This document shows, one piece after another, positions 24,659-52,558 of a stretch of 64,000 nucleotides of DNA (position 1 is the first letter of the stretch; each line of letters starts with the position of its first letter). Both the position numbers and the translations under genes were made by a program. The DNA is from a virus. The notes below the pieces were generated by a model, which had not been told where the DNA came from, did no database searches, and was given only the letters and a program-made list of their open reading frames with translations. The stretch is taken from positions 1-64,000 of the IMG/VR virus record IMGVR_UViG_3300030382_001297; one strand, 5' to 3'.

Positions 24659-24853
24659 TCACTGTTTTATAGCAATGACATCTCTCTTATTCACTACGAC
24701 TGTACCTTTCTCTCCAGTAAGGTACACAAAATTATCATCGTCGTGTTTTATCATTCCTCTGCCGACCTTAGTCTTTTCCTCTTCTCGCCATACTACTTTA
24801 ACCTCTTTATCTTGTAAAAAAGAAGCAAGTCCTTTACCATCATTTTCGTCCAT
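24659..24853 (-). CDS. Sm/Lsm/Hfq-like small protein
   Basis: 64 aa: helix, KEVKVVW, GMIKHDDDNFVYL, TVVVNKRDVIAI, matching the Sm1/Sm2 pattern; own TATA at ~24932-24944. Confidence 0.55.
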   Translation of the reverse strand: MDENDGKGLASFLQDKEVKVVWREEEKTKVGRGMIKHDDDNFVYLTGEKGTVVVNKRDVIAIKQ

Positions 24854-27170: not shown

Positions 27171-27421
27171 GACGCAGGTAACTCCTTAATATCATCATCT
27201 TCAGTTACTTCCCACATCTGTATCAAACCAATGGCATCACGCACAGCGTTAGCCATAGAGGAATGATACATAAACATTGCTTTACTTTCTTCATCTCCTA
27301 GTATATCTGATTTAACTTCTTCAGCTATCGACTCATGGAAGTTAACGCAGTGGTATAAAAGGTCTATCCATTGTTCACGTTCTTTATCGGTATTAACTTT
27401 TAATGTTTTTATCTCACTCAT
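27167..27421 (-). CDS. Hypothetical protein
   Basis: 84-aa ORF coupled to both neighbours. Confidence 0.55.
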   Translation of the reverse strand: MSEIKTLKVNTDKEREQWIDLLYHCVNFHESIAEEVKSDILGDEESKAMFMYHSSMANAVRDAIGLIQMWEVTEDDDIKELPAS

Positions 27422-27792
27422 CTATCGTCGCCATCACCCTTTATGGTGTCTTTCACCATGCGTTGATTGAGTTTGTCTATATTGTTTATCATAACGTCAT
27501 AGAAAGTTATTCCTAGTACGTCTAATATGCGTGTGTAGTACCATAAAACATCTCCTAACTCAGACTCCATCGCCTTATTAAAATCTTGTACTACCATCAT
27601 ATCTCCTCTAAGATGTTTCTTAAATTTTCCTAGTACTTCACCCACTTCATTTGCTAGCCCTATCATTAGGTATTCCATTTCTACTTCTTTAGGATACTGG
27701 GCTGTAGTTCTTGTGAACTCTTTATATGTTTCTTCCCATCCTAGATTGATAGTCATGCCCTGTGGCTCTTTCTTCTTTTCTTCTTTCACCAT
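27418..27792 (-). CDS. MazG-like NTP pyrophosphohydrolase
   Basis: GLANEVGEVLGKFKKHLR, ELGDVLWY, NIDKLNQR...IKGDGDDR. Confidence 0.88.
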   Translation of the reverse strand: MVKEEKKKEPQGMTINLGWEETYKEFTRTTAQYPKEVEMEYLMIGLANEVGEVLGKFKKHLRGDMMVVQDFNKAMESELGDVLWYYTRILDVLGITFYDVMINNIDKLNQRMVKDTIKGDGDDR

Positions 27793-28106
27793 ATGTTCAT
27801 CTCCTCTGGTATTATATCTCTATTTAAAATCCATTTTCTCTCTGTTGGTAAATATCTATGTACTAAATCAGCCTTGTGTTCTGCTTGTACCACCCACGGC
27901 TTAACAAGTATAAGGTCTCTTTCTCTTACCCACATTCTCCTTTTAAATTTACCACCTATTCTAACCATGCGTATCTTTCCATCTTCACACATAGCTAAAA
28001 GTCTCGAACCCCCAGACATCTCACGGACAACAGCGAACTGTTCATTTTTCACTGGTAATTTAACCTTTCTTGTAATGTGTCCTGATGGCTTTGGTTTCTT
28101 TTTCAT
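27786..28106 (-). CDS. eif1a: Translation initiation factor 1A (aIF-1A/eIF1A family)
   Basis: KLPVKNEQFAVVREMSGGSRL...CEDGKIRMVRIGGKFKRRMWVRERDLILVKPW...KADLVHRY; start probably 28106 (track gives 28124). Confidence 0.9.
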   Translation of the reverse strand: MKKKPKPSGHITRKVKLPVKNEQFAVVREMSGGSRLLAMCEDGKIRMVRIGGKFKRRMWVRERDLILVKPWVVQAEHKADLVHRYLPTERKWILNRDIIPEEMNIW

Positions 28107-29532
28107 TGTAATCTCCTTCTGCATTTAATAGAAAGGACTCGTAGTCCTTAATCTCTGAATCCCGTTTGGTTTTAAAAACCTTTGGGTAATCCATTTTCTC
28201 TACTTCTGTGGCTTTCTTTGCTCTCGAACCCAACTCAACGTTGTCGCCAGTAAACGGGTCAACAATTTTAATATCGCTACAAAAGCGCCCATTGTACTCG
28301 CTAGCCACGGTAGTCCAGTTCTCTGCCATAAACTTTTTTGTTTCTTCAACTAACTCACTCCATTTTATTTTTGCCACTGGTTCGTCTATCAGTGGACTTT
28401 TGTAATACATACGCTTACCCTTTTCATCATCCATCTCTAAGAACCCTGTCATAACTAAACCCATTAAGATAGGGTCCAGTTTAGTGAAAGGTAGTCCTAC
28501 AGCCTTAGCCGCTTTCTTTATCTCATTGGTAGACATTCTTATTGTCTCTCCATCTGCAAAACCAAATCTATCTAATCTTGTGTCAGGAAACAACTTAAGT
28601 ATGTCTGTTCCATGAGCTGGCATATGTAAACATTCTTCTACAAAGGAATTAAGATATATACGCAACCCTAACCAATTATGTTTAGGTGTTACCATTCCAT
28701 ATTCAATTCCATCTCTTTCTACCTTCAGTATCTCATCAGGATAGAACCTCGCAACTGCATTAATTAATTTTAATAAGTATTGAACCTTTGACCTTGATAC
28801 AGGGAAGGCACTAGGGATTGCATCAAACAAAAAGGGTGCGCAGGGATTCTTAAGCTTAATAGCCTTCTCTTCATCTCTGTTCACAATCACATCTAATATA
28901 TGTCTGCGTAAGCCCTCTATCTCTTCATCATCCATAGTAGTCATGTCTGACATAGGAGAAGCGGCTTCTTTCAGTTTATGTTTGATTACTCTCTCTGTCT
29001 GTATCACAGTAGGGTTAGTATGCATTATCATACATCTACGCTCCAACTCTGCGTCGAAATAAGCTGAACCCTTTGTGTTCTCTACTGCCACACACATAAA
29101 GACATACTTAGGATTCAGTGTTTGTTTTACTGTTTCTCCTATTGTTATATCTGTTTTCTTTCTGAAAGCGGCTCTATTATCACCCCAAGTCTTTATCACT
29201 TCCATAATTCCTTCGGGTAACTTTTGAGCTTCTGGTATAGCTACAAATCTTGAACGATTAATTTTGTCAGACTCATACCATACTGCTGTCTCAGACATAT
29301 GTTCTATTGTGTGATAGAACTCATCAGGCAACAGACCAAAGATAGCATCCATGATGACTGTCTTACCTGTGCCCGAATAAGCTTTAATAACAAAGTTAGT
29401 ATCTTCTAAAAGATATGATAAACATGCTGTTAAAGCTGTTGCATCCTCTCCTAAGATAGGATTAAGGTCTCCTTTCCTATTCTTTACATTGTGGAAATAT
29501 CTTGTTAAATCATGAACTTCATATTTTTTCAT
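28060..29532 (-). CDS. P-loop AAA+ ATPase, putative replicative helicase
   Basis: Walker A AYSGTGKT, ELERR arginine-finger-like motif, C-terminal winged-helix-like segment; lies in the replication module. Confidence 0.6.
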   Translation of the reverse strand: MKKYEVHDLTRYFHNVKNRKGDLNPILGEDATALTACLSYLLEDTNFVIKAYSGTGKTVIMDAIFGLLPDEFYHTIEHMSETAVWYESDKINRSRFVAIPEAQKLPEGIMEVIKTWGDNRAAFRKKTDITIGETVKQTLNPKYVFMCVAVENTKGSAYFDAELERRCMIMHTNPTVIQTERVIKHKLKEAASPMSDMTTMDDEEIEGLRRHILDVIVNRDEEKAIKLKNPCAPFLFDAIPSAFPVSRSKVQYLLKLINAVARFYPDEILKVERDGIEYGMVTPKHNWLGLRIYLNSFVEECLHMPAHGTDILKLFPDTRLDRFGFADGETIRMSTNEIKKAAKAVGLPFTKLDPILMGLVMTGFLEMDDEKGKRMYYKSPLIDEPVAKIKWSELVEETKKFMAENWTTVASEYNGRFCSDIKIVDPFTGDNVELGSRAKKATEVEKMDYPKVFKTKRDSEIKDYESFLLNAEGDYNEKETKAIRTHYKKG

Positions 29533-35206: not shown

Positions 35207-36103
35207 TCACTGTATTGCACGTTCCCTCACACTCTTAGGTATTTGGTCATATGTGCAATCTTCTACGTCCTTATCGTCTCTCCAATGTAAAAACTTAGGG
35301 TGTCTTATACTCCCTGATGGATACCATGTATTACCTTTAGCCTTAAAGACCTGACCAATATAAACTTCTGGGTTCTTAGTAAAATCCTGTCGCATGGCCT
35401 CAGTGAGACCCCCACAGGTGACATATACTTCTTTATCATAAAATGTTCCAATTACTCCCCCTACTTGTCCCTCATACTTTGTTCCTTCGTCTGCCATCCT
35501 AAAGGAATGACATACATATTCTACTTCAACTACTGCTTTCATTCTCGCCCATGCGTTTCGGTGTTGATACTCACTCGTGCTATCTTTAAACACAAGCCCT
35601 TCATATGCTTCACCTATAACATAGTGGTCCCATAACTCAGGCCACTGATAAGTCTCATATGTCTCTAAAATGTCGAGCCATTCTAATTCTTGTTTACATT
35701 GTTCCCAAGCCCATTCCGAACATAAAGTTCTTTCAGCTAACTCTTTTGATTCAATGTTTTTACCTTCAAATCTCAAGCAATCGAATATATAAAACTCACC
35801 ATCTATATCTCTTGTGTGCGCCCAATGGGAACCATACATATATTCTCCCAACAGAACAGAGTCTATTGTTGAATCTGATATAACTCCCTCACTCTTTTTC
35901 TTACCTGTTCTTGAGTATATAGCCCACTGTCCATTATTTATTATAAGACAACCCCAGATACCATCCATCTTCATTTGAACCATATCGTATTGTATTGGAA
36001 TCTCCCTATCCTTACGATAGATTAACTCTCTAAACTTCGGTCTATCTACTCTTGCTGAATCTATAAACTTCTCATGTGCGGGAAACCCTGTTATATCTTT
36101 CAT
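35207..36103 (-). CDS. lig: ATP-dependent DNA ligase (minimal)
   Basis: KMDGIW, LLGE, IFDCL, YEGLVFKD, WARMK, OB domain GSIRHPKFLHWRDDK. Confidence 0.88.
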   Translation of the reverse strand: MKDITGFPAHEKFIDSARVDRPKFRELIYRKDREIPIQYDMVQMKMDGIWGCLIINNGQWAIYSRTGKKKSEGVISDSTIDSVLLGEYMYGSHWAHTRDIDGEFYIFDCLRFEGKNIESKELAERTLCSEWAWEQCKQELEWLDILETYETYQWPELWDHYVIGEAYEGLVFKDSTSEYQHRNAWARMKAVVEVEYVCHSFRMADEGTKYEGQVGGVIGTFYDKEVYVTCGGLTEAMRQDFTKNPEVYIGQVFKAKGNTWYPSGSIRHPKFLHWRDDKDVEDCTYDQIPKSVRERAIQ

Positions 36104-36490: not shown

Positions 36491-36774
36491 CTCTCACATC
36501 CGTTCCGGCAACATTCTTTACTCATGCCTTCTTCTATCTCTGGGTCAGGTTTCCAAATACCTTTAGCCATTATATCTTTCAGCCATTCATCTTGATACCT
36601 TAGTGGCATCTCCATATATATAATCTCAGCTATAGTGCTGATACATTCCTCATATTCTTTATATGTTTTGACTAAGCGTGTCTCTTCATTCTCACCACTA
36701 CCTTCTGCGATAGGGGTAACCATCTGGTTTTTCTCATACGTTCTACCGTCAGTGTATTCTGTTTTATATGTCAT
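36478..36774 (-). CDS. Hypothetical protein
   Basis: AGGAG RBS; C-terminal CCRNGCERC. Confidence 0.55.
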   Translation of the reverse strand: MTYKTEYTDGRTYEKNQMVTPIAEGSGENEETRLVKTYKEYEECISTIAEIIYMEMPLRYQDEWLKDIMAKGIWKPDPEIEEGMSKECCRNGCERCEQ

Positions 36775-36923
36775 TATTACTCCTGTTTATATTTTCTTGG
36801 TCTTAATGTTAATTTCTTTTTACTAAATCCAAATTTAGTGTCTATCCATACTACTATTTCTCTTATCATTTTTCATTTCTCCATAATGATATTTCAATAT
36901 ATATCAAATATCTATTTAAAGGT

Positions 36924-37527
36924 TGTGGTAGAGAGAGATATGAACCCAAAACAAAACTGAAAGATATAAAACCGTCATCCTTGTTTATCACTCGCAATGA
37001 GCTTACTCCTTGTGTAGTTATATATCACACTATACTTATCTTAACTACCGCATCGGCTGTTGTGCAGAGGTATAATGTTCTCAGTATATAGTTCAACAGT
37101 GACATATGCTTCTCACGAACTAAAATCGGTCTATGTCTTTCATCCTTATATACCTGCGTTCACAGTTGGTAAGCATATATGTTCATGCTCATTATGTCCT
37201 TCTAACGGACAGTGAACTACCACATGACTCAGTGACTCTACTTCTTCTGTCGTGAACGCTTTGATAGGTCTCGCTTGACGTATAGGCATGCCATCTCTCA
37301 AGATGGACGCACTCCTATACTTGGTTCTCTTATGTGTAGCACCATAACTGCTACCACACCTATCTCATAGTGTTTCTGTCCTAACTCCCCGCTTAGGGTA
37401 ATGACGCTATTATGATTAAGCGTATGGGCTTTGTTATCACTATGTATCTCATAGAGCTTGCTTGATTAGCTCAATCACTCTATGTTTCTCAGCGACTTTT
37501 GGGCGTATGATTCAGGTCTCTACCACA
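36924..37527 (-). ncRNA. Candidate ~600-nt large structured non-coding RNA
   Basis: No ORF of 60 aa or more. Ends form a perfect 11-bp stem extended by CCCAAAA/TTTTGGG, enclosing at least six nested helices. Strand inferred from flanking genes and purine richness. Confidence 0.7.
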
Positions 37528-37531
37528 TTTA

Positions 37532-37608
37532 GTGGGATAGGAGCTTCGAGAGGTAAAATGAGCCAAACAACTGTTAAGAAATAAGGTTTGAAACTCCTAT
37601 CCTATCAC
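37532..37608 (-). ncRNA. Candidate antisense hairpin sRNA
   Basis: Stem GGATAGGAG (37535-43) / CTCCTATCC (37594-602); loop complementary to RBS plus start codon sequences. Confidence 0.5.
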
Positions 37609-37716
37609 CTTAGGTTTAAAACTTTAGGAACATCCACATCCATATCATAGTAAAGAATGCTATAAGTATATACCATTCAGCTTCTTGTATGTCTCGTGGA
37701 TTACTCCATAATTCTT

Positions 37717-38244
37717 TTAGTCTTTTATATATTCTCCTGTATGTATCTTTATGCATTGTTGCTTTCCTCTATCATATGCTTCGAGATGTCCTCTGTAAAA
37801 ATCCCATGCATCTCTATTAGCATATAATTTCTTCTTATCATAAGTAGTGGCATAGTAACTCTTTGACTTACTTGCCTCCCAATCATCTTTCTTTAGGTTT
37901 TTCCCAGCGATAAAAAACTCAGGAGTATTATCAGTTCTCAGTATCCAATGGAGGAATATAAAATATCCTTCCCTCTTACTGTAAGTTCCACTGAACCACG
38001 TTTCTCCTGATGTTGTCTTTATCTCTACTGGATGACCACCCAAACGTATGTCTGGTTCAGCATCTATCTTTGGTGCTACGGCATCCTCTATCAATTCAGC
38101 CATAGCATTTTCAAGTAGTCCACTTATATCTTCTGACTTTTGTTTCTTAGTTTTAAAGAGACTCTTCTTATCATAGAAGTCAAACAACTCTTTAGTATCG
38201 CTTGTCAATCTCTCTATCACTGCTTTGTTTATGATTTCCTTCAT
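37717..38244 (-). CDS. Restriction endonuclease-like PD-(D/E)XK protein
   Basis: SGLLE...EPDIRLGGHPVEIKTT; no DNA methyltransferase recognised in the window. Confidence 0.6.
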   Translation of the reverse strand: MKEIINKAVIERLTSDTKELFDFYDKKSLFKTKKQKSEDISGLLENAMAELIEDAVAPKIDAEPDIRLGGHPVEIKTTSGETWFSGTYSKREGYFIFLHWILRTDNTPEFFIAGKNLKKDDWEASKSKSYYATTYDKKKLYANRDAWDFYRGHLEAYDRGKQQCIKIHTGEYIKD

Positions 38245-38508: not shown

Positions 38509-40653
38509 TCATACTTTTATAACCCTCCTGATTATCTTTGATACTGCTGGCGCAAGGTTATCTATATTACTAACCATTATATGGTTGTTAAACATCTTTT
38601 GTTGTGCATACTTATCTGCTCCGCTTATTCCTACTTGAATAATTGACCATCCTTTACCTTCTAAATGATTTACTACCTTTCGCACGTGACTCATACCATC
38701 ATAACCACCATATCCAGACGCAGCCGGCTGACCGTCGGAGTATATAATCATAAGCTTGTTAGACATAGGCTGTGAAGATTCTTTACTAACTCTTTCAGCC
38801 GCCGCCCATATAGCCATACCATCTCTATTTTCATATCGAGCTATCATAGCTCCCATAGCCATAGGTCTATCTTTCATATTCGGCCCCCAATATTCAGTCA
38901 TATTGGTCGAACCACAATCTGTATGCCATCCAGCTTCACCATCAGCAGTATGACCAAATACCCATAAGTCTAATTTGGGATTATCCTGTAAAGCTTCTTT
39001 CGTAGCGATAGCTGACTGTCGAGCCATCTCCATCTTCCACGAACCCATACTACCTGATTCATCTACCAATATACAAATGTCTAATGGTTTATCATCTTCA
39101 ATTATATCATTCTTAAACAAATCCTTACGACCTAATGGTATTCTGTGAAGCATACGCTTATCTATCTTACCACGCTTCTGATTACGGATAGTATGTTTTT
39201 GTGTATTACCATATAAATCTATCTTACGCTTGAGTGAATTACTTATCTTCTTCATATTTTTAGATTCTGCCTTATATTTAACTCTTTGACCTTCAGTAGG
39301 TCGAGCTTTACGCCAAGTGATTTTCTTTTGGTTCTTGTATATAAGACCAACCTCAGTCATCTCAGTTTCCATATAGTCACTATCTTCAAGTTCTTCTATC
39401 TCTTTTGATATTTCATCGGCTAATGCACTACTCTTAGCATCTAACGTATAGTCTACTGCTTCTTCAAGTTCCCTCATCCCATCTGAGTCTTTCATTAGCT
39501 TACGAACATCAGACATACGACTTCTTTTACGTTCTATGTCTTTCTTAATTGAATCCTTTATGGATTCCCACTGTTCATCAGTTAATAAATCACCATCAGT
39601 CATAGACTTTTTGAGTTTGTCCATCTCTTTCTCGATATCTTTCTTCATATCCTCGCCGGAGCCTTTATCTTTAACCATCTTTTCGGCTACTGCTTTAAGA
39701 TAATGGAATAGTGCTTCTATACATTCAAAGGTATTTTCTCTACTATCCAATCCATTCTTTAACGCACGTGCAAAAAATCTTATATGCTTTCCGTGACGCT
39801 TTCTGCGAGTGTCGCCCATATGTTCCGGCCATCTAATGAAAGCTAATAGAGTATTCAGTATATCCATAAATGGATTATCTTCTATCATTTCTAATTTAGT
39901 TTCCATCTTCTCCTTGAAAAAGTGTTTCTTAACTTCAGAAATATATGTCACAAACCCAGCGTTATCTTTAGCTAACTGCTTTTCTATGTATTCATCTTCT
40001 ACTGAATTAGCGATAGTATGTAGTAATGTTCCTTCATATGTATCTTTTACTAATTCTGTTGCTTTCCTCTTTTCCCATCTATATAATGGTTTACTATGAA
40101 TGAGGTGTAACTTTTCGTGTATAGCTAATCCTGCTGTTATATCTAAATTGTCATCACTCTTCTTTAGTAGAGACCCATCTATGCGTATGAGTCCTCTTTC
40201 TAAATCAGAATAGTTCTGACCTTCATAATTGTAATCTAACTTATGCGATACTGTTGGGTCTACAACTTTACATAGAGAATCTAAATGTCTCTTATGTTTC
40301 AGTAATCTGGTCGCATCATCTTTATCAGCGTGGGAACTACCCCAACTACCCCACATACTTGACGTAGAGCCTGTGGATTGTCCTTGCCACCAGCCACCAC
40401 CACCCCAAGTATAGGAACTACTACGGTTCCACATATCTCCGGTGGAAGATATAACGGGTGAATCTTTTATCGCAACTTTTGCTGTTGAAGCAGTAGTGAA
40501 TCTATCATCATAATCTAATGGAGTTTCACATATAGGACATTTATCCTCATGCGTAGCTTCTATCCATTTACTACAATCATAGCAGTAATCATCATCTGAT
40601 ACGCCTGTCCACTTATCTATATCGGTGTGGTGTGGTTCGTGTTTAATAACCAT
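38509..40653 (-). CDS. VWA-domain protein (CobT/NorD-like) with HEXXH zincin-like region
   Basis: MIDAS ILVDESGSM, IYSDGQP, GKIDKRML; AIHEKLH...NSVEDEYIE; N-terminal Cys pairs. Confidence 0.82.
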   Translation of the reverse strand: MVIKHEPHHTDIDKWTGVSDDDYCYDCSKWIEATHEDKCPICETPLDYDDRFTTASTAKVAIKDSPVISSTGDMWNRSSSYTWGGGGWWQGQSTGSTSSMWGSWGSSHADKDDATRLLKHKRHLDSLCKVVDPTVSHKLDYNYEGQNYSDLERGLIRIDGSLLKKSDDNLDITAGLAIHEKLHLIHSKPLYRWEKRKATELVKDTYEGTLLHTIANSVEDEYIEKQLAKDNAGFVTYISEVKKHFFKEKMETKLEMIEDNPFMDILNTLLAFIRWPEHMGDTRRKRHGKHIRFFARALKNGLDSRENTFECIEALFHYLKAVAEKMVKDKGSGEDMKKDIEKEMDKLKKSMTDGDLLTDEQWESIKDSIKKDIERKRSRMSDVRKLMKDSDGMRELEEAVDYTLDAKSSALADEISKEIEELEDSDYMETEMTEVGLIYKNQKKITWRKARPTEGQRVKYKAESKNMKKISNSLKRKIDLYGNTQKHTIRNQKRGKIDKRMLHRIPLGRKDLFKNDIIEDDKPLDICILVDESGSMGSWKMEMARQSAIATKEALQDNPKLDLWVFGHTADGEAGWHTDCGSTNMTEYWGPNMKDRPMAMGAMIARYENRDGMAIWAAAERVSKESSQPMSNKLMIIYSDGQPAASGYGGYDGMSHVRKVVNHLEGKGWSIIQVGISGADKYAQQKMFNNHIMVSNIDNLAPAVSKIIRRVIKV

Positions 40654-41012
40654 TTTTCTATATCCTCTTCCGGTTGCATAGCTTCTGCTATCATCTTATA
40701 TTCAAAACATTTTAAGGTTCGTTTAGCTGACCCTACTGCACATTTATATACAAATCTATCATCGTCAGTAATCATACCTTCTATCATAGCATATGCATCT
40801 TGTATGTCTATCGTTTGTGGTAGGTTAGTCTCTAACATATTATCATTCTTAAGTCTACGACTATATCCTCCAACGTGCCTACCTGTGATTTCACCCTGTG
40901 GGTATGCTATCTTCAGGGCTTTGGCTACCATTGCTGGCTTCATTCCATGCTCTAATAAAATTTTTGCTGGAGTATGCCAATACATATGTTTCTTACTTCT
41001 TACTTTTGCCAT
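40617..41012 (-). CDS. Hypothetical protein (possible HTH)
   Basis: Lies between the AAA and VWA genes; LLEHGMKPAMVAKAL. Confidence 0.5.
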   Translation of the reverse strand: MAKVRSKKHMYWHTPAKILLEHGMKPAMVAKALKIAYPQGEITGRHVGGYSRRLKNDNMLETNLPQTIDIQDAYAMIEGMITDDDRFVYKCAVGSAKRTLKCFEYKMIAEAMQPEEDIEKWLLNTNHTTPI

Positions 41013-41014
41013 AC

Positions 41015-42319
41015 TTAATCACCCATTGATTGTATTGCTTGAATAACTTTAACTCTATCAGTGTCGTCACCAGCAGTTATAGGATAGAATGGTAAGCAAG
41101 TATGCTTAAGTGCATCAAGCAAAGTCATACCATCTACTACTAATTCACCTACTGACAAACACATACGAGTAGAAACAGCTACGTTTAACTCTTCTGCTTT
41201 ATATAAATCTCTAATCTTCTTAGCAAATTCAGTTATACGCCTTGCGTCATCATCTTCGAGATGTGGAACACGATTCTGTAATAGTTCCTGTTCTTTATTC
41301 TGTGGTAGGTAATCTAATTCGTATATACCTCCAGTGAATCTATCCTTCCAAGCTCTATCTAAGTCGTTGGCCGCCCCAAGATATTCTCTACCTATGTTAG
41401 CAGTAGCGAAGAAGAATACGTTAGTATCTAACTTAACTATGTCTGCGTCATCACTTTCGTCTAACGCTAAGTATCTTTGACCATCTAACACAGGCATAAG
41501 TATATTACCTAAGTCGCCTGTCCTATCTCTTGTCACTTCGTCAAGCATAATGAATGCTCCACTGTTATCTTCTAAGGCTGATACGAAACGAGATGGCTTA
41601 AACCACGTTCCATCCTCTTGATTATACTTTGTGTCTCCTAATAGCTTTGCCGCCGGATTCATAGTATCCCCAAAATTGAACTGATGGAATGGTTTGTTAG
41701 TTATCTCTGCCAATATCTTACCTAAAGATGACTTACCGCAACCGGATGGCCCTGTCACAAGTATATACTTATTCCTAAAGATGTTGCGTAGCATAGTATA
41801 AAATGTCATACTATCTGCGAACTTAAACTCTTCAGGTATAGCTACGCTTGACTTAAGCTTTCCTATCACACTGTCATCAATAACAGGTATAATAGGTTCT
41901 TCTTTTATTGCTTCAGCCATAAAATCATCTACGGCTGTCTCCCTATCATCTCGCATAGCGTCACCGCTTTCTATATCCTCATCCAATACTGAATGGTCTG
42001 GACTATCTCCTATATCTTCTATCGGAGTCTCATGCCCTATGGCATCTTCTGCTGGCTCGGATGACTCAGGATATCCTCCTACGTCATCTCTATATGTCTC
42101 TTCTGACTTCATTTTTTTTACCTCTTTATGTATATCTTCGAGTTCTACCTCTAATCTTGATATCATTTTGTTGTATTCTTCGAGAGCTTCGTGGTCTATC
42201 ACAGGCTCTCCCATAACTTTATCTTTGCATTCATTCATGAAACGTAGCTTATCTTCTACTTTTACTTGCTTAGTTGTTAGTTCACCTAATTTAGCGAACT
42301 TCTCACTTCTACTACTCAT
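41015..42319 (-). CDS. MoxR/CbbQ/CobS-family AAA+ ATPase
   Basis: GPSGCGKS, IMLDEVTR, FFATAN, DLDRAWKDRF, VSTRMC. Confidence 0.88.
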   Translation of the reverse strand: MSSRSEKFAKLGELTTKQVKVEDKLRFMNECKDKVMGEPVIDHEALEEYNKMISRLEVELEDIHKEVKKMKSEETYRDDVGGYPESSEPAEDAIGHETPIEDIGDSPDHSVLDEDIESGDAMRDDRETAVDDFMAEAIKEEPIIPVIDDSVIGKLKSSVAIPEEFKFADSMTFYTMLRNIFRNKYILVTGPSGCGKSSLGKILAEITNKPFHQFNFGDTMNPAAKLLGDTKYNQEDGTWFKPSRFVSALEDNSGAFIMLDEVTRDRTGDLGNILMPVLDGQRYLALDESDDADIVKLDTNVFFFATANIGREYLGAANDLDRAWKDRFTGGIYELDYLPQNKEQELLQNRVPHLEDDDARRITEFAKKIRDLYKAEELNVAVSTRMCLSVGELVVDGMTLLDALKHTCLPFYPITAGDDTDRVKVIQAIQSMGD

Positions 42320-44500: not shown

Positions 44501-44536
44501 TCAAACCATCTGTATTATAGAGAAAAAGGAGGAAAA

Positions 44537-44893
44537 ATGCCTAAAACAACTGAAACGCAAAAATCTACTGCAATGGATTATTTGGCGGCCCCACGTGGTG
44601 AAGGAATTGTAAAGAACCTAATGGCTCTTTTAGGATTCCAAGCCCCAAAGGGTGGTCGATTGCCTGTTGGAGTAAAATACGATACACTTGTAGCAATGAA
44701 CGACGTATTAAGCGCTGAAATAAGTGCTGAAACGACTTCGATGATTACAAGTAGGATTGTTGAGCTACAAGCGTCACGACGTTTAAGCACTGGAAAAGTT
44801 TCCGCAACACCGGAAAGTATAATCAGTGCAATTAAGTCGGGTCGTATTTCATTGACCGAACTTCAAGCGAAGCTCGAAGCAATGGAGTCTTAA
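44537..44893 (+). CDS. Hypothetical protein (118 aa), the only credible + strand gene in the control region
   Basis: GGAGG RBS, dedicated promoter, downstream G7/C7 hairpin. Confidence 0.7.
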   Translation: MPKTTETQKSTAMDYLAAPRGEGIVKNLMALLGFQAPKGGRLPVGVKYDTLVAMNDVLSAEISAETTSMITSRIVELQASRRLSTGKVSATPESIISAIKSGRISLTELQAKLEAMES

Positions 44894-47225: not shown

Positions 47226-47365
47226 ATTTTGTGCTTCGCCATTCTTGTCAAGCGCCCCTATTTTTATACTGGGGTATTAATCCAGTCTTAAAACAAATAT
47301 CAGAACGACAACGCTAAAGTATACGTCTTAGCGTCTGTGAACTTCCTACTCATTAATAAGTATAA

Positions 47366-47525
47366 GGTGTGAGGGAGGATTCAAGGTTAACCTCCAAAGA
47401 CTACCGGCCCAAATACCTAAGTATTGTCCGCACTTACCACTCACCACCCTCTCACGCATTTGCGCATTGAGGCAGGTTTGTGTGCCTTACCCCCTTTGGG
47501 AAGGGGTTATTCAGCCACTCACGAT
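47366..47525 (-). ncRNA. manA-motif-like structured RNA with a tRNA-like 3' end
   Basis: 5' UGGCUGAAUAACCCCUUCCCAAAGGGGGUAAGGCACAC resembles, from memory, the manA RNA motif of marine phages; 3' GGAGG-UU...GAAU-CCUCC-CUCACACC. Confidence 0.5.
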
Positions 47526-47626
47526 AACGGGATATCTCCCATTAATATAAGGTGTTGGGTCGGGATTCGGCCCCTGAAACCCAACACGGGATATTGTATT
47601 TTTAATTACAGTTTAATTCTGTTTGC

Positions 47627-49919: not shown

Positions 49920-50984
49920 ATGATAGAGATGAAAGACCTAATGGAGACTTCTCTGGTAGCACAGTTACTAGAGAAGGGAGGCAGAATTGAGCCTCTTATA
50001 GTAGAGAACAGTAAGTCAGATGGGTTGGGATTATGCAACCCGTCAATTTGGCATAAAGAAGGTACAACCAAGTACTTAGTTAATGTAAGGAAAGTTTCTT
50101 ATTACTTACACCACTGTGAAGGAGAACAGAAGTATCAGACCCCTTGGGGCCCCCTGAATTATGTTCGCCCCGACGATGACCCTTATTTAAGAACAGATAA
50201 TTTTATCTGTGACTTTAATTTAAGGAATATGAAATTAACTAACCCCCGAAAGATAAACACTAACAAGTTTACCAAAGAACCTGAATGGGACTTTGTGGGA
50301 CTAGAGGACGCTAGGATTGTCGAGTGGGAAGGAAAGATGTACGTAACTGGCGTTCGGCGCTACGCGCCGGATGGAAAGGGAAGGATGGTATTGTCCGAAA
50401 TTGATATTACACCAAAAGGTGTGAAGGAGATAGGACGTTATGTCATGTTACCCCCAGAAGGTGAAGAGAATTACTGTGAGAAGAATTGGATGCCTATATT
50501 AGATAAGCCGTTTCACTTCGTGAAATGGTCTAATCCTATAGAGGTTATTAAAGTGGATATAAATAAAAAGTGGAAGAACAACCCTAAGAAATATCGATGT
50601 CCAAGTAGTTACGTATTCAAAGGAGACCCTAAGAAGAAACTACCCTTCCAGTTAGACCCACGTGGTAGCTCTCAGGTAATACCTTATCATGGTTATTACA
50701 TGGCTATCGTACACGAGTGTGATTACTGGCACAATGATAAGAACGATAGAGATTCACATTATTACCATAGATTTATGGTATGGGATAAAAAGTGGAACGT
50801 AGTGACTTATTCAGACCCATTCAAGTTTATGGATGGACGTATAGAGTTCTGTTGTGGAATGGCTGTGCACCCAGATGGAAATGACGTTTACGTTACCTTT
50901 GGGTTCCAAGATAATTCTGCATACAAACTACATATACCTGCTGAACACTTAAACACTATGTTGGAGTTCCCTAAGAAAGAATGA
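49920..50984 (+). CDS. Five-bladed beta-propeller glycosidase/phosphorylase-like protein (GH130-like)
   Basis: CNPSI, GLEDARIV, CEKNWMP, RGSSQ, YYHRF, IEFCCGM, VTFGFQDN. Confidence 0.75.
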   Translation: MIEMKDLMETSLVAQLLEKGGRIEPLIVENSKSDGLGLCNPSIWHKEGTTKYLVNVRKVSYYLHHCEGEQKYQTPWGPLNYVRPDDDPYLRTDNFICDFNLRNMKLTNPRKINTNKFTKEPEWDFVGLEDARIVEWEGKMYVTGVRRYAPDGKGRMVLSEIDITPKGVKEIGRYVMLPPEGEENYCEKNWMPILDKPFHFVKWSNPIEVIKVDINKKWKNNPKKYRCPSSYVFKGDPKKKLPFQLDPRGSSQVIPYHGYYMAIVHECDYWHNDKNDRDSHYYHRFMVWDKKWNVVTYSDPFKFMDGRIEFCCGMAVHPDGNDVYVTFGFQDNSAYKLHIPAEHLNTMLEFPKKE

Positions 50985-52558
50985 AGAACGACTATTGGAG
51001 AACCACAGACTGGCCTACGCTAGAAATAACAACATCTATACCTAAAGCAGGGTGTGTAGTTGATTGTGTCTTTTGCCCACAACGAGTTTTACAAAAGGTG
51101 TGGGATAGCGAACACTTCACTACAGAAAAAGCTAGAATCATGAGGTTAGAAGACTTCAAGATGGTAGTTGATAAATTACCTAAAGAAGTTAGAATAACCT
51201 TCTCTGGTTTTACTGAACCTTGGTTAAACAAAGATTGTTCAACGATGGTGCAATATGCACATCTCAAGGGACACCCTGTATCTGTATTCACTACAGCCGT
51301 AGGTATGAGTCTTAAAGATGTTAAAATGATTTCGCATATACCTTTCTGTGGAGGACCCAATGGTGGATTTACATTACATCTACCTGATAAAGAAAGACTG
51401 GCTAAACACCCAGTAACTAAAACATATATTAAAGTAGTACAAGCGTTAAAGGACGCTGACATTACAAACTTCCAAACCATGTCAATGGGGGAAGTCCACG
51501 AAGAAGTGGAACATATATATCCCGATAAGACAGTTAATAAATATGAAATGTGGCATCGAGCAGGTAACCTATTAGGTGAAGCTCAACTGAAGCCAGAAGT
51601 AAAAGAAGTATGGGATAGATTCAAATCTGTTTACCATGAAGGAGATAAAACATGTGGTTGTATAGAAGGTTTATATCATAACATACTATTACCTAATGGT
51701 GAAGTATCGCTATGTTGTATGGATTATAACCTAGAAGAAATAATAGGTAATTTGTATACACAAGAATATGATGATATAATGCCTAAACCACAAACATGCT
51801 ATGACATGTGTAAAAGATGTGAGAATGGAGTAGACCCCATAACTAGCAATTCTAGTATGGTTAAAGAGTATGGTGTCGCAGACGCATTGTCTTGCGACCA
51901 CTTTATAGCACCTGATGAGATGGTACAGTATTTAGGCTTCGATATGAACCCTGATAAACGTGTACCTGAAGCAGACATCATACAAAGCATGAGGGAATAT
52001 ATAAACCCTAGTGGAACATTTGTAGATGTGGGTGCACATATAGGAACTTATACATGGTTATTAGGACCTTATGCTAAGGAGGTTTATGCCTTTGAGCCTA
52101 CTCGTAGAATTTATAATCATCTATGCGCTAATGTTTTATTAAAGAACCTTTCTGACAAAGTAGAAACTTATAATATAGGATTATCTGATACTAATGGTAA
52201 ATTACCATTTTATGAGAGACAACCTGATGGAGGAACTAATGGTTTCACAGAAATTGGTTGGAAAGAAGATGATTCTTATATGCTGCCTGTTCTTAAAATG
52301 GATGAGTTTGATATAAAAGATATAAGTTTAATTAAGATAGATGTAGAGGGACACGAGCTTCAAGTTATCAAAGGAGCTTCTGAAACCCTTAAGAATAATA
52401 ATTACCCTCCTATTCTCTTTGAAAGTTGGGAACCTACGAGGTCCCAAAGAGCAGGAGAACTTAGAACGGAGCTGTTTAATTATTTATATGAAATAGGATA
52501 TACTGTCTGCCAGACAGAATCTCCTGAGATATTTTTAGCAAAGAAGGAAAAATTATGA
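50981..52558 (+). CDS. Radical SAM/SPASM domain fused to an FkbM-family methyltransferase
   Basis: CVVDCVFC, FSGFTEP, GEVSLCCMDY; then VDVGAHIG, AFEP, LIKIDVEGHELQVIKGA. Confidence 0.85.
   Translation: MKNDYWRTTDWPTLEITTSIPKAGCVVDCVFCPQRVLQKVWDSEHFTTEKARIMRLEDFKMVVDKLPKEVRITFSGFTEPWLNKDCSTMVQYAHLKGHPVSVFTTAVGMSLKDVKMISHIPFCGGPNGGFTLHLPDKERLAKHPVTKTYIKVVQALKDADITNFQTMSMGEVHEEVEHIYPDKTVNKYEMWHRAGNLLGEAQLKPEVKEVWDRFKSVYHEGDKTCGCIEGLYHNILLPNGEVSLCCMDYNLEEIIGNLYTQEYDDIMPKPQTCYDMCKRCENGVDPITSNSSMVKEYGVADALSCDHFIAPDEMVQYLGFDMNPDKRVPEADIIQSMREYINPSGTFVDVGAHIGTYTWLLGPYAKEVYAFEPTRRIYNHLCANVLLKNLSDKVETYNIGLSDTNGKLPFYERQPDGGTNGFTEIGWKEDDSYMLPVLKMDEFDIKDISLIKIDVEGHELQVIKGASETLKNNNYPPILFESWEPTRSQRAGELRTELFNYLYEIGYTVCQTESPEIFLAKKEKL

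Follow-up and report, generated by a model that had tools for sequence, protein, structure and literature searches.

A previously undescribed family of structured RNAs encoded by uncultured marine viruses

The virus record IMGVR_UViG_3300030382_001297 (IMG/VR; 72.5 kb, rated complete) was analyzed over positions 1 to 64,000, hereafter referred to as the window. On its minus strand, at positions 36924-37527, lies a 604-nt structured RNA element. It belongs to a family of such RNAs, encoded by viruses, that has not been described before. It is well supported that this RNA is real and structured, that it is conserved in 11 loci with covarying helices, and that it is read from the minus strand. 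What the RNA does during infection is a matter of conjecture, which we develop after the structural evidence.

A closed multi-helix element in a non-coding gap

The features that define the element and its surroundings are as follows.

36924-37527, minus strand: closed multi-helix element, 604 nt here and 156-609 nt in relatives, fold z-score −4.0
37517-37527, minus strand: 5' strand of the closing helix P1, pairing with 36924-36934 over 11 bp
36924-36934, minus strand: 3' strand of P1, partner of 37517-37527
37497-37504, minus strand: 5' strand of helix P2, partner 36944-36951
37487-37493, minus strand: 5' strand of helix P3, partner 36956-36962
36944-36959, minus strand: U-rich tract with the P2 3' strand, its conservation judged by eye
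37257-37368, minus strand: three-way-junction core of 110 nt, consisting of a closing helix and two hairpins (1 and 2), of which the second varies at its tip
37532-37606, minus strand: companion hairpin, a 10-bp stem with a large loop

A first-pass annotation, made from the letters of this DNA alone, had proposed a self-closing multi-helix RNA of about 600 nt in a gap free of open reading frames (ORFs). The gap is real, with other limits than those first given: it extends from 36870 to 37615 (746 nt), holds no conserved ORF, and is bounded by two conserved ORFs, one of 46 aa (stop at 37616) and one of 30 aa (start at 36869). Every pairing that had been listed is found in the sequence, and most of them form in the minus-strand minimum-free-energy fold, namely 36924-36934/37517-37527, 36945-36951/37497-37503 with the adjoining short pairs, 37156/37252, 37263/37358, 37280/37314 with its tip, 37366/37438 and 37450/37478. 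The ten-base word said to open the last two arms is likewise present twice, at 37359-37368 and 37446-37455. The multi-helix RNA element that had been put forward stands; it is conserved and lies on the minus strand.

Folding energies were compared with those of dinucleotide shuffles. The minus strand of 36924-37527 reaches −168.1 kcal/mol versus −145.2 ± 5.7 kcal/mol for the shuffles (z −4.03), and the plus strand −160.8 versus −137.0 ± 4.5 kcal/mol (z −5.33); on neither strand was any of 20 shuffles as good. The sense-strand z-score is below −2 in eight of the ten complete members of the family. No conserved ORF was found within the element when the window and its relatives were compared, micro-ORFs included. 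The sole peptide matches are 12-36 aa long, fall in several frames and on both strands, and lie on nucleotide-conserved blocks; in one member (L027), the longest ORF is 6 aa.

Homologues were searched with the flanking 175-aa protein, a ligase alignment and short conserved words. Ten further distinct loci from related viral and metagenome contigs carry the element (L024, L005, which equals L004, L023, L027, L001, L025, L022, L014, L009 and L007), making 11 with the window. L007 is cut by a contig end, leaving ten complete members in all, and L013 is a partial look-alike of L014. Eight scans of viral contigs gave the same seven records each, and this collection is therefore regarded as exhausted. 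The contigs of 186 ligase homologues lie outside the homologue set, and L006, L008, L010 and L011 are too short for the presence of the element to be judged. A pattern scan of viral contigs yielded three stretches, two of which, L020 and L021, were rejected as chance matches by GC content and blastn. The hairpin pattern was also matched by 27 stretches in genome contigs of assorted bacteria and of no archaea; by a rough estimate this is roughly at or below the chance number, and these stretches were discarded as well.

A conserved closing frame

P1 measures 9-12 bp in eight of the ten complete members. In the two exceptions, 9 of 10 positions pair around one mismatch (L025) or 4 bp form before a bulge (L014). 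The stem occurs in at least five sequence versions with its pairing kept. As the ends of the element were chosen by eye, the shuffle test of the terminal stem is circular, and conservation of the stem in relatives is the true control.

In the window, L024, L005, L023 and L027, an internal loop of conserved sequence comes next to P1, and helices P2 and P3 lie inward of it. An alignment of these five sequences has 96.1% of cells paired, compared with 35-55% when the strands are slid against each other, and four pairs are changed on both sides. The covariation score of the frame is 0.200 versus 0.118, with 2 of 500 shuffles as high. Taken separately in the five-sequence alignment (A8), P2 has 97.5% of cells paired and 3 of 8 pairs changed on both sides, and P3 has 96.9% of cells paired, its changes being one-sided from G-C to G.U, which is legal on the minus strand only.

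The U-rich tract at 36944-36959 is predicted to be paired in P2. By eye, most members have a similar U-rich word close to the 3' end, even L001 and L025, where it is without a P2 partner. A bulge-helix-bulge as in processed or circular archaeal RNAs, with one 3-nt bulge in each strand flanking a 4-bp helix, was considered for the closing stem and rejected by eye: the P1-P2 loop has 13 nt versus 7-8 nt, and L024, L005, L023 and L027 do not share the 4-bp mini-helix seen in the window.

A covarying three-way junction and a companion hairpin

Inside the frame, the junction at 37257-37368 combines covarying helices with two joining strands that are nearly constant in sequence. Among three sequences, 8 of its 24 pairs are already changed on both sides. 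R1, a covariance model built for this junction, scores 114.7 bits on the window and finds the core in nine distinct sequences (23 sources searched; L012 and L016-L019 were excluded from the search as too short downstream of the gene). In the alignment of these nine sequences, which was fitted to R1 and thereby favours the structure, both bases have changed in 15 of 24 pairs and 90.0% of cells are paired, compared with 27.7-45.3% when slid; the covariation score is 0.380 versus 0.142, a value that none of 500 shuffles reached. Compensatory changes are accordingly present both in the frame (four pairs) and in the junction.

The companion hairpin adjoins the element in all 11 loci; L022 and L014 have it behind the element, the other nine in front. 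Its stem is paired in 110 of 110 cells of the alignment of 11, with 5 of 10 pairs changed on both sides. A word retained in the loop has complementarity to a ribosome-binding site together with a start codon and two codons. As a target of the loop segment 37546-37575, the start region of the gene at 44537 (44525-44554) was tried and rejected: it matches at 19 of 30 positions, and 93.5% of shuffled queries do equally well.

Strand and presence in RNA libraries

Wobble pairs identify the strand. A U.G pair is kept in the hairpin stem of 10 of the 11 sequences, G.U pairs occur in P2 and P3, and the 12-bp P1 of L009 contains two more. All of these would be mismatches on the plus strand, which places the RNA on the minus strand. 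The consensus fold of the window and L023 reaches −75.35 kcal/mol on the minus strand versus −68.43 kcal/mol on the plus strand, where P3 is lost.

Part of the stretch is contained in 13 listed RNA runs, four of which were examined (three studies: X1, X2/X3 and X4). The RNA libraries with the element are of marine and vent origin. Mismatch-free RNA-library contigs cover 36981-37133, 37105-37204, 37175-37446, 37268-37515, 37227-37515 and 37147-37375, together spanning 36981-37515. The sequence of the predicted transcript is thus present in RNA-library contigs, which carry no information on strand, ends or level of the RNA and come from libraries that can contain DNA. Further contigs agree with the window over single blocks and diverge beyond them, as expected of mosaic relatives. 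Outside 36934-37591, one contig only was found in the four runs (X2, 37929-38121); neither this contig nor the small word shares in the RNA runs (0.05-0.21) were used as evidence.

A mosaic interior

The first-pass proposal of an architecture of about 600 nt holds in part: the element is real and conserved in parts, whereas the 600-nt body as a whole is not conserved, its homologues being bounded units of 156-609 nt with mosaic interiors. Three short features recur within these interiors.

37107-37131, minus strand: module F, 25 nt, identical in L022 and L005 and present as variants in L009, L014 and L024 (blastn)
36979-37013, minus strand: module A, common to L022, L023, L024, L009 and L007
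37404-37423, minus strand: small hairpin with a conserved 10-nt loop, judged by eye only

Modules A and F stand in a different order in the window than in L022, L024 and L009. Three RNA-library contigs match module A alone and then diverge. By eye, the 10-nt loop recurs elsewhere in L005, L023, L024, L022, L014, L009 and L007. A consensus fold of the 3' halves of six members, based on a poor MAFFT alignment, yielded no pairs, and a K-turn motif, judged by eye, gave no fit. In L009 and L007, no element is found at the position it has in the window, and the whole cassette follows the ligase gene rather than preceding it, indicating that the cassette remains intact when relocated.

Comparison with known RNA families

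No family of Rfam 15 matches the gap when the window is scanned with cmscan (4227 models) at gathering scores. At E ≤ 10 over 36500-38000, only four chance-level rows fall in the gap, and at E ≤ 1 over seven homologous loci there are no matches. The novelty that the first-pass annotation had left conditional on Rfam is therefore not removed. Its suggestion of kinship with ROOL, GOLLD or OLE, on the other hand, finds no backing: there is no covariance-model match, and ARAGORN detects no tRNA or tmRNA gene in the 64-kb window. Full-text literature searches, judged by title and abstract, returned no report of such an RNA in archaeal viruses, and the main texts of magrovirus papers, whose supplements could list intergenic features, lack the words non-coding, ncRNA and intergenic.

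To our knowledge, large structured non-coding RNAs are rare, and the few from prokaryotic viruses, GOLLD and ROOL, belong to bacteriophages. The present element shares with these two that it is a large, many-helix non-coding RNA with unassigned function, encoded by a virus of prokaryotes. It differs in matching neither Rfam model in the window or in seven relatives, in its variable size down to 156 nt, its mosaic body and its probably archaeal host. In the portion of a preprint on GOLLD and ROOL that we draw on (bioRxiv 10.1101/2024.12.08.627333), GOLLD consists of a conserved and a less conserved part, one GOLLD member comes from a marine metagenome, and both RNAs are often near tRNA islands. 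As far as that portion describes GOLLD, our element resembles it in combining a conserved with a less conserved part; it is unlike both in being without nearby tRNA genes.

OLE is similar in size (about 600 nt) and in its ornate secondary structure, and has membrane-protein partners. The window element differs from it in lacking a model match and in being viral and mosaic; the same part of the preprint presents OLE as a bacterial chromosomal RNA (bioRxiv 10.1101/2024.12.08.627333).

Regulatory RNAs that depend on Hfq or Sm proteins offer another comparison. Likenesses are the U-rich tract near the 3' end, a co-encoded protein with a predicted Hfq/Sm fold (see below) and the exposed loop, which complements a ribosome-binding site with a start codon. 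Most known Hfq-dependent RNAs measure 50-300 nt and have neither a closing stem nor a large multi-domain body, in contrast to the window element, for whose loop no target was found in the window. Packaging RNA of the phi29 type is also virus-encoded and built around a three-way junction. Compared by description, the RNA studied here is far larger and more variable; moreover, the gap has no Rfam match, and its surroundings are replication genes instead of a genome end. In Y RNAs and bacterial Y-RNA-like RNAs, the ends pair in a conserved stem that serves as a protein platform, with a variable module inside. Unlike in those RNAs, the stem sequence varies freely in the window family, and again no Rfam match was obtained. 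Group I and group II introns gave no model match at E ≤ 10; the element is flanked by a stop codon and the companion hairpin on one side and by a promoter-like word on the other.

The virus, its probable host and a candidate protein partner

Two genes outside the locus bear on the role of the RNA.

27786-28124, minus strand: translation initiation factor of the aIF-1A type (Pfam eIF-1a, E 1.3e-15; NCBIfam NF003084, 99.7 bits versus a cut-off of 91)
24659-24853, minus strand: 64-aa protein, modelled as a helix and five strands (pLDDT 76.5)

A large terminase and a portal protein are encoded in the window, from which we conclude that the virus is tailed. The aIF-1A gene passes the NCBIfam cut-off and thereby points to an archaeal host, so that the virus probably infects archaea and the label of archaeal virus is plausible for this uncultured marine tailed virus, as judged from its genes. 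In tblastn comparisons of family B polymerase (PolB) and large terminase (TerL) with named phages, the best identity is at most about 23%, which puts a magrovirus assignment beyond the reach of this comparison. A blastn search of the gap against 50,697 phage records gave no match. As a side observation, a MazG-like gene at 27418-27792 adjoins the aIF-1A gene.

For the 64-aa protein, the best structural matches found with Foldseek are Hfq/Sm proteins (TM-score 0.72-0.83). It has 336 homologues at E ≤ 0.001, and identity is 77-98% across the 120 of these that were listed; some clusters represent up to 279 marine contigs. Four of the five other RNA-carrying records encode it. The modelled fold weakly suggests a viral Hfq/Sm-like protein, which would be the best candidate partner of the RNA.

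A possible function and its weaknesses

The explanation that we favour as a whole, and consider moderately probable, is a new family of viral structured RNA that forms a stable species, offers a platform to an Hfq/Sm-like protein and has a role in translation; the protein partner and the translational role are guesses. The RNA unit would be located at the 3' terminus of the transcription unit upstream, or derive from that unit, and would accumulate as a stable species. Its conserved frame and U-rich tract could then serve as a binding platform, most plausibly for the viral Hfq/Sm-like protein, and the resulting RNA-protein particle might act on translation initiation during infection. Such an action is suggested by the joint occurrence of the aIF-1A gene, the anti-start hairpin and the Hfq/Sm-like candidate.

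A bolder version seems to us distinctly unlikely. According to it, the family would give archaeal viruses their first class of large ornate RNAs with several domains. A particle of the RNA, an Hfq/Sm-like ring and perhaps aIF-1A would capture host start sites or ribosomes to redirect initiation; alternatively, the RNA would self-assemble like GOLLD and ROOL. The rapid change of the interior would stem from an arms race with the host.

Several observations weigh against the explanation that we favour, in addition to the limits already given for the fitted junction alignment and for the RNA-library contigs. The related sequences number only 5 to 11. Frame, junction and a few short modules aside, the mosaic interior cannot be aligned even among close relatives. 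The junction is absent from 3 of the 11 loci: L001, L025 and L027 keep only the hairpin and the closing stem around short, unrelated interiors, and no junction was found anywhere in their whole records (52-83% complete). P2 of L005 has a C.A mismatch that would be a G.U pair on the other strand. Folding energy is not beyond shuffles in L005 (z −0.25, 5 of 16 shuffles as good) and L009 (z −0.70, 7 of 30); it does not separate the strands either, the antisense z-score being better in the window, L001, L005 and L024. Regarding function, the hairpin loop has no target above chance in the window, where the best non-self match is the rejected start region described above. Pfam does not match the 64-aa protein, Foldseek E-values for it are no better than about 1e-2, and its co-occurrence with the RNA is not independent evidence because it looks like a core gene of the clade. 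On balance, the interpretation offered by the first-pass annotation is partly supported.

The significance of the family lies in providing a testable entry to RNA-based host takeover in abundant uncultured marine viruses, in view of its covarying core, its presence in RNA libraries and the aIF-1A and Hfq/Sm-like proteins of the virus. The junction additionally supplies a compact three-way-junction domain for structural work.

Alternative explanations

The strongest alternative, unlikely in our judgement, is a structured 3' untranslated or intercistronic region. Its helices would end the upstream transcript, shield it from 3' exonucleases and insulate it from the next promoter, and RNA found in libraries would be a protected decay product without a function in trans. 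The layout of the locus agrees with this: the unit begins 10 nt beyond the stop codon of the 46-aa ORF, its other end stands 3 nt ahead of a TATA-like word, conserved promoter-like words are lacking in front of it, and in L001 and L023 an ORF directly adjoins the hairpin. Free swapping of the interior and the wide range of sizes would likewise fit a need for stability over a defined shape, and the U-rich tract near the 3' end is in keeping with this reading. A plain exonuclease block, however, needs no conserved joining strands, loop or modules. In the junction, the two single-stranded joining segments are nearly unchanged while the helices covary; the P1-P2 internal loop is conserved in sequence, and short modules recur at differing positions. 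Conservation of the companion hairpin in every locus also speaks against this alternative.

We attach little credence to an array of small independent structured RNAs or modules that are co-transcribed and then cut apart. This would explain the module shuffling seen in the swapped order of modules A and F, the loop hairpin at differing places among members, and the RNA-library contigs that often match one block only. It is contradicted by the closing stem, which pairs the extreme ends in all members with compensatory changes, and by the long-range helices P2 and P3; furthermore, perfect RNA-library contigs span 272 nt (several modules) and 289 nt.

A DNA-level element, be it a miniature transposon or invertible segment, a replication origin or a cluster of protein-binding palindromes, is scarcely believable, since the perfect 11-bp terminal inverted repeats, the about equal folding of both strands, the varying position of the cassette relative to the ligase gene and the nuclease genes in the same region are outweighed by a single copy in the 72.5-kb record with no module repeated elsewhere in the window, G.U and U.G pairs legal on one strand only, covarying internal local hairpins, the absence of strand-changing joints among the contigs of the four RNA runs in which the sequence is present, and a cumulative GC skew with its turns near 18 kb and 47 kb instead of at 37 kb.

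Neighbouring genes and other features

All genes around the element lie on the minus strand.

38509-40653, minus strand: CobT-like VWA gene, upstream of the element
37717-38244, minus strand: 175-aa gene, upstream of the element, with a nuclease-like acidic and lysine motif seen by eye only
37616-37756, minus strand: conserved 46-aa ORF with a hydrophobic C-terminus, ending 10 nt before the hairpin (ORF lists)
36913-36920, minus strand: TATA-box-like word, 3 nt after P1 (alignment of loci)
36777-36869, minus strand: conserved basic 30-aa ORF, the first gene after the element (ORF lists)

The TATA-like word, which we tentatively read as an archaeal promoter from its likeness to the consensus, has the same place in all loci with a shared flank, and the next small genes then follow. 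Further downstream are a 98-aa ORF, an ATP-dependent DNA ligase (35207-36103), RecU and the family B polymerase. Pfam gave no match for the 46-aa or the 30-aa ORF, and the 175-aa protein had no match in Pfam, PHROG or NCBIfam.

In L023, another small gene stands where the 175-aa gene is found elsewhere. A conserved protein of 51-66 aa shifts its place among L005 (4311-4475), L023, L027, L001, L022 and L007, following the RNA cassette in some relatives and preceding the 175-aa gene in others, which indicates that the region is often rearranged. Upstream of the RNA locus, the CobT-like VWA protein forms a pair with a CbbQ/NorQ-type AAA+ ATPase (38509-42319, minus strand).

Elsewhere in the window, a match to the manA RNA was recorded at 47364-47544 on the minus strand (55.4 bits versus an Rfam gathering score of 55.2, E 2e-11). 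It sits in an ORF-poor stretch at about 43.4-49.5 kb, a 6-kb region with few long ORFs. manA is a bacterial and phage motif, found here in a virus with an aIF-1A gene. Finally, in a 525-aa protein encoded at 50981-52558 on the plus strand, radical SAM and SPASM domains are combined with a methyltransferase domain of the FkbM type.

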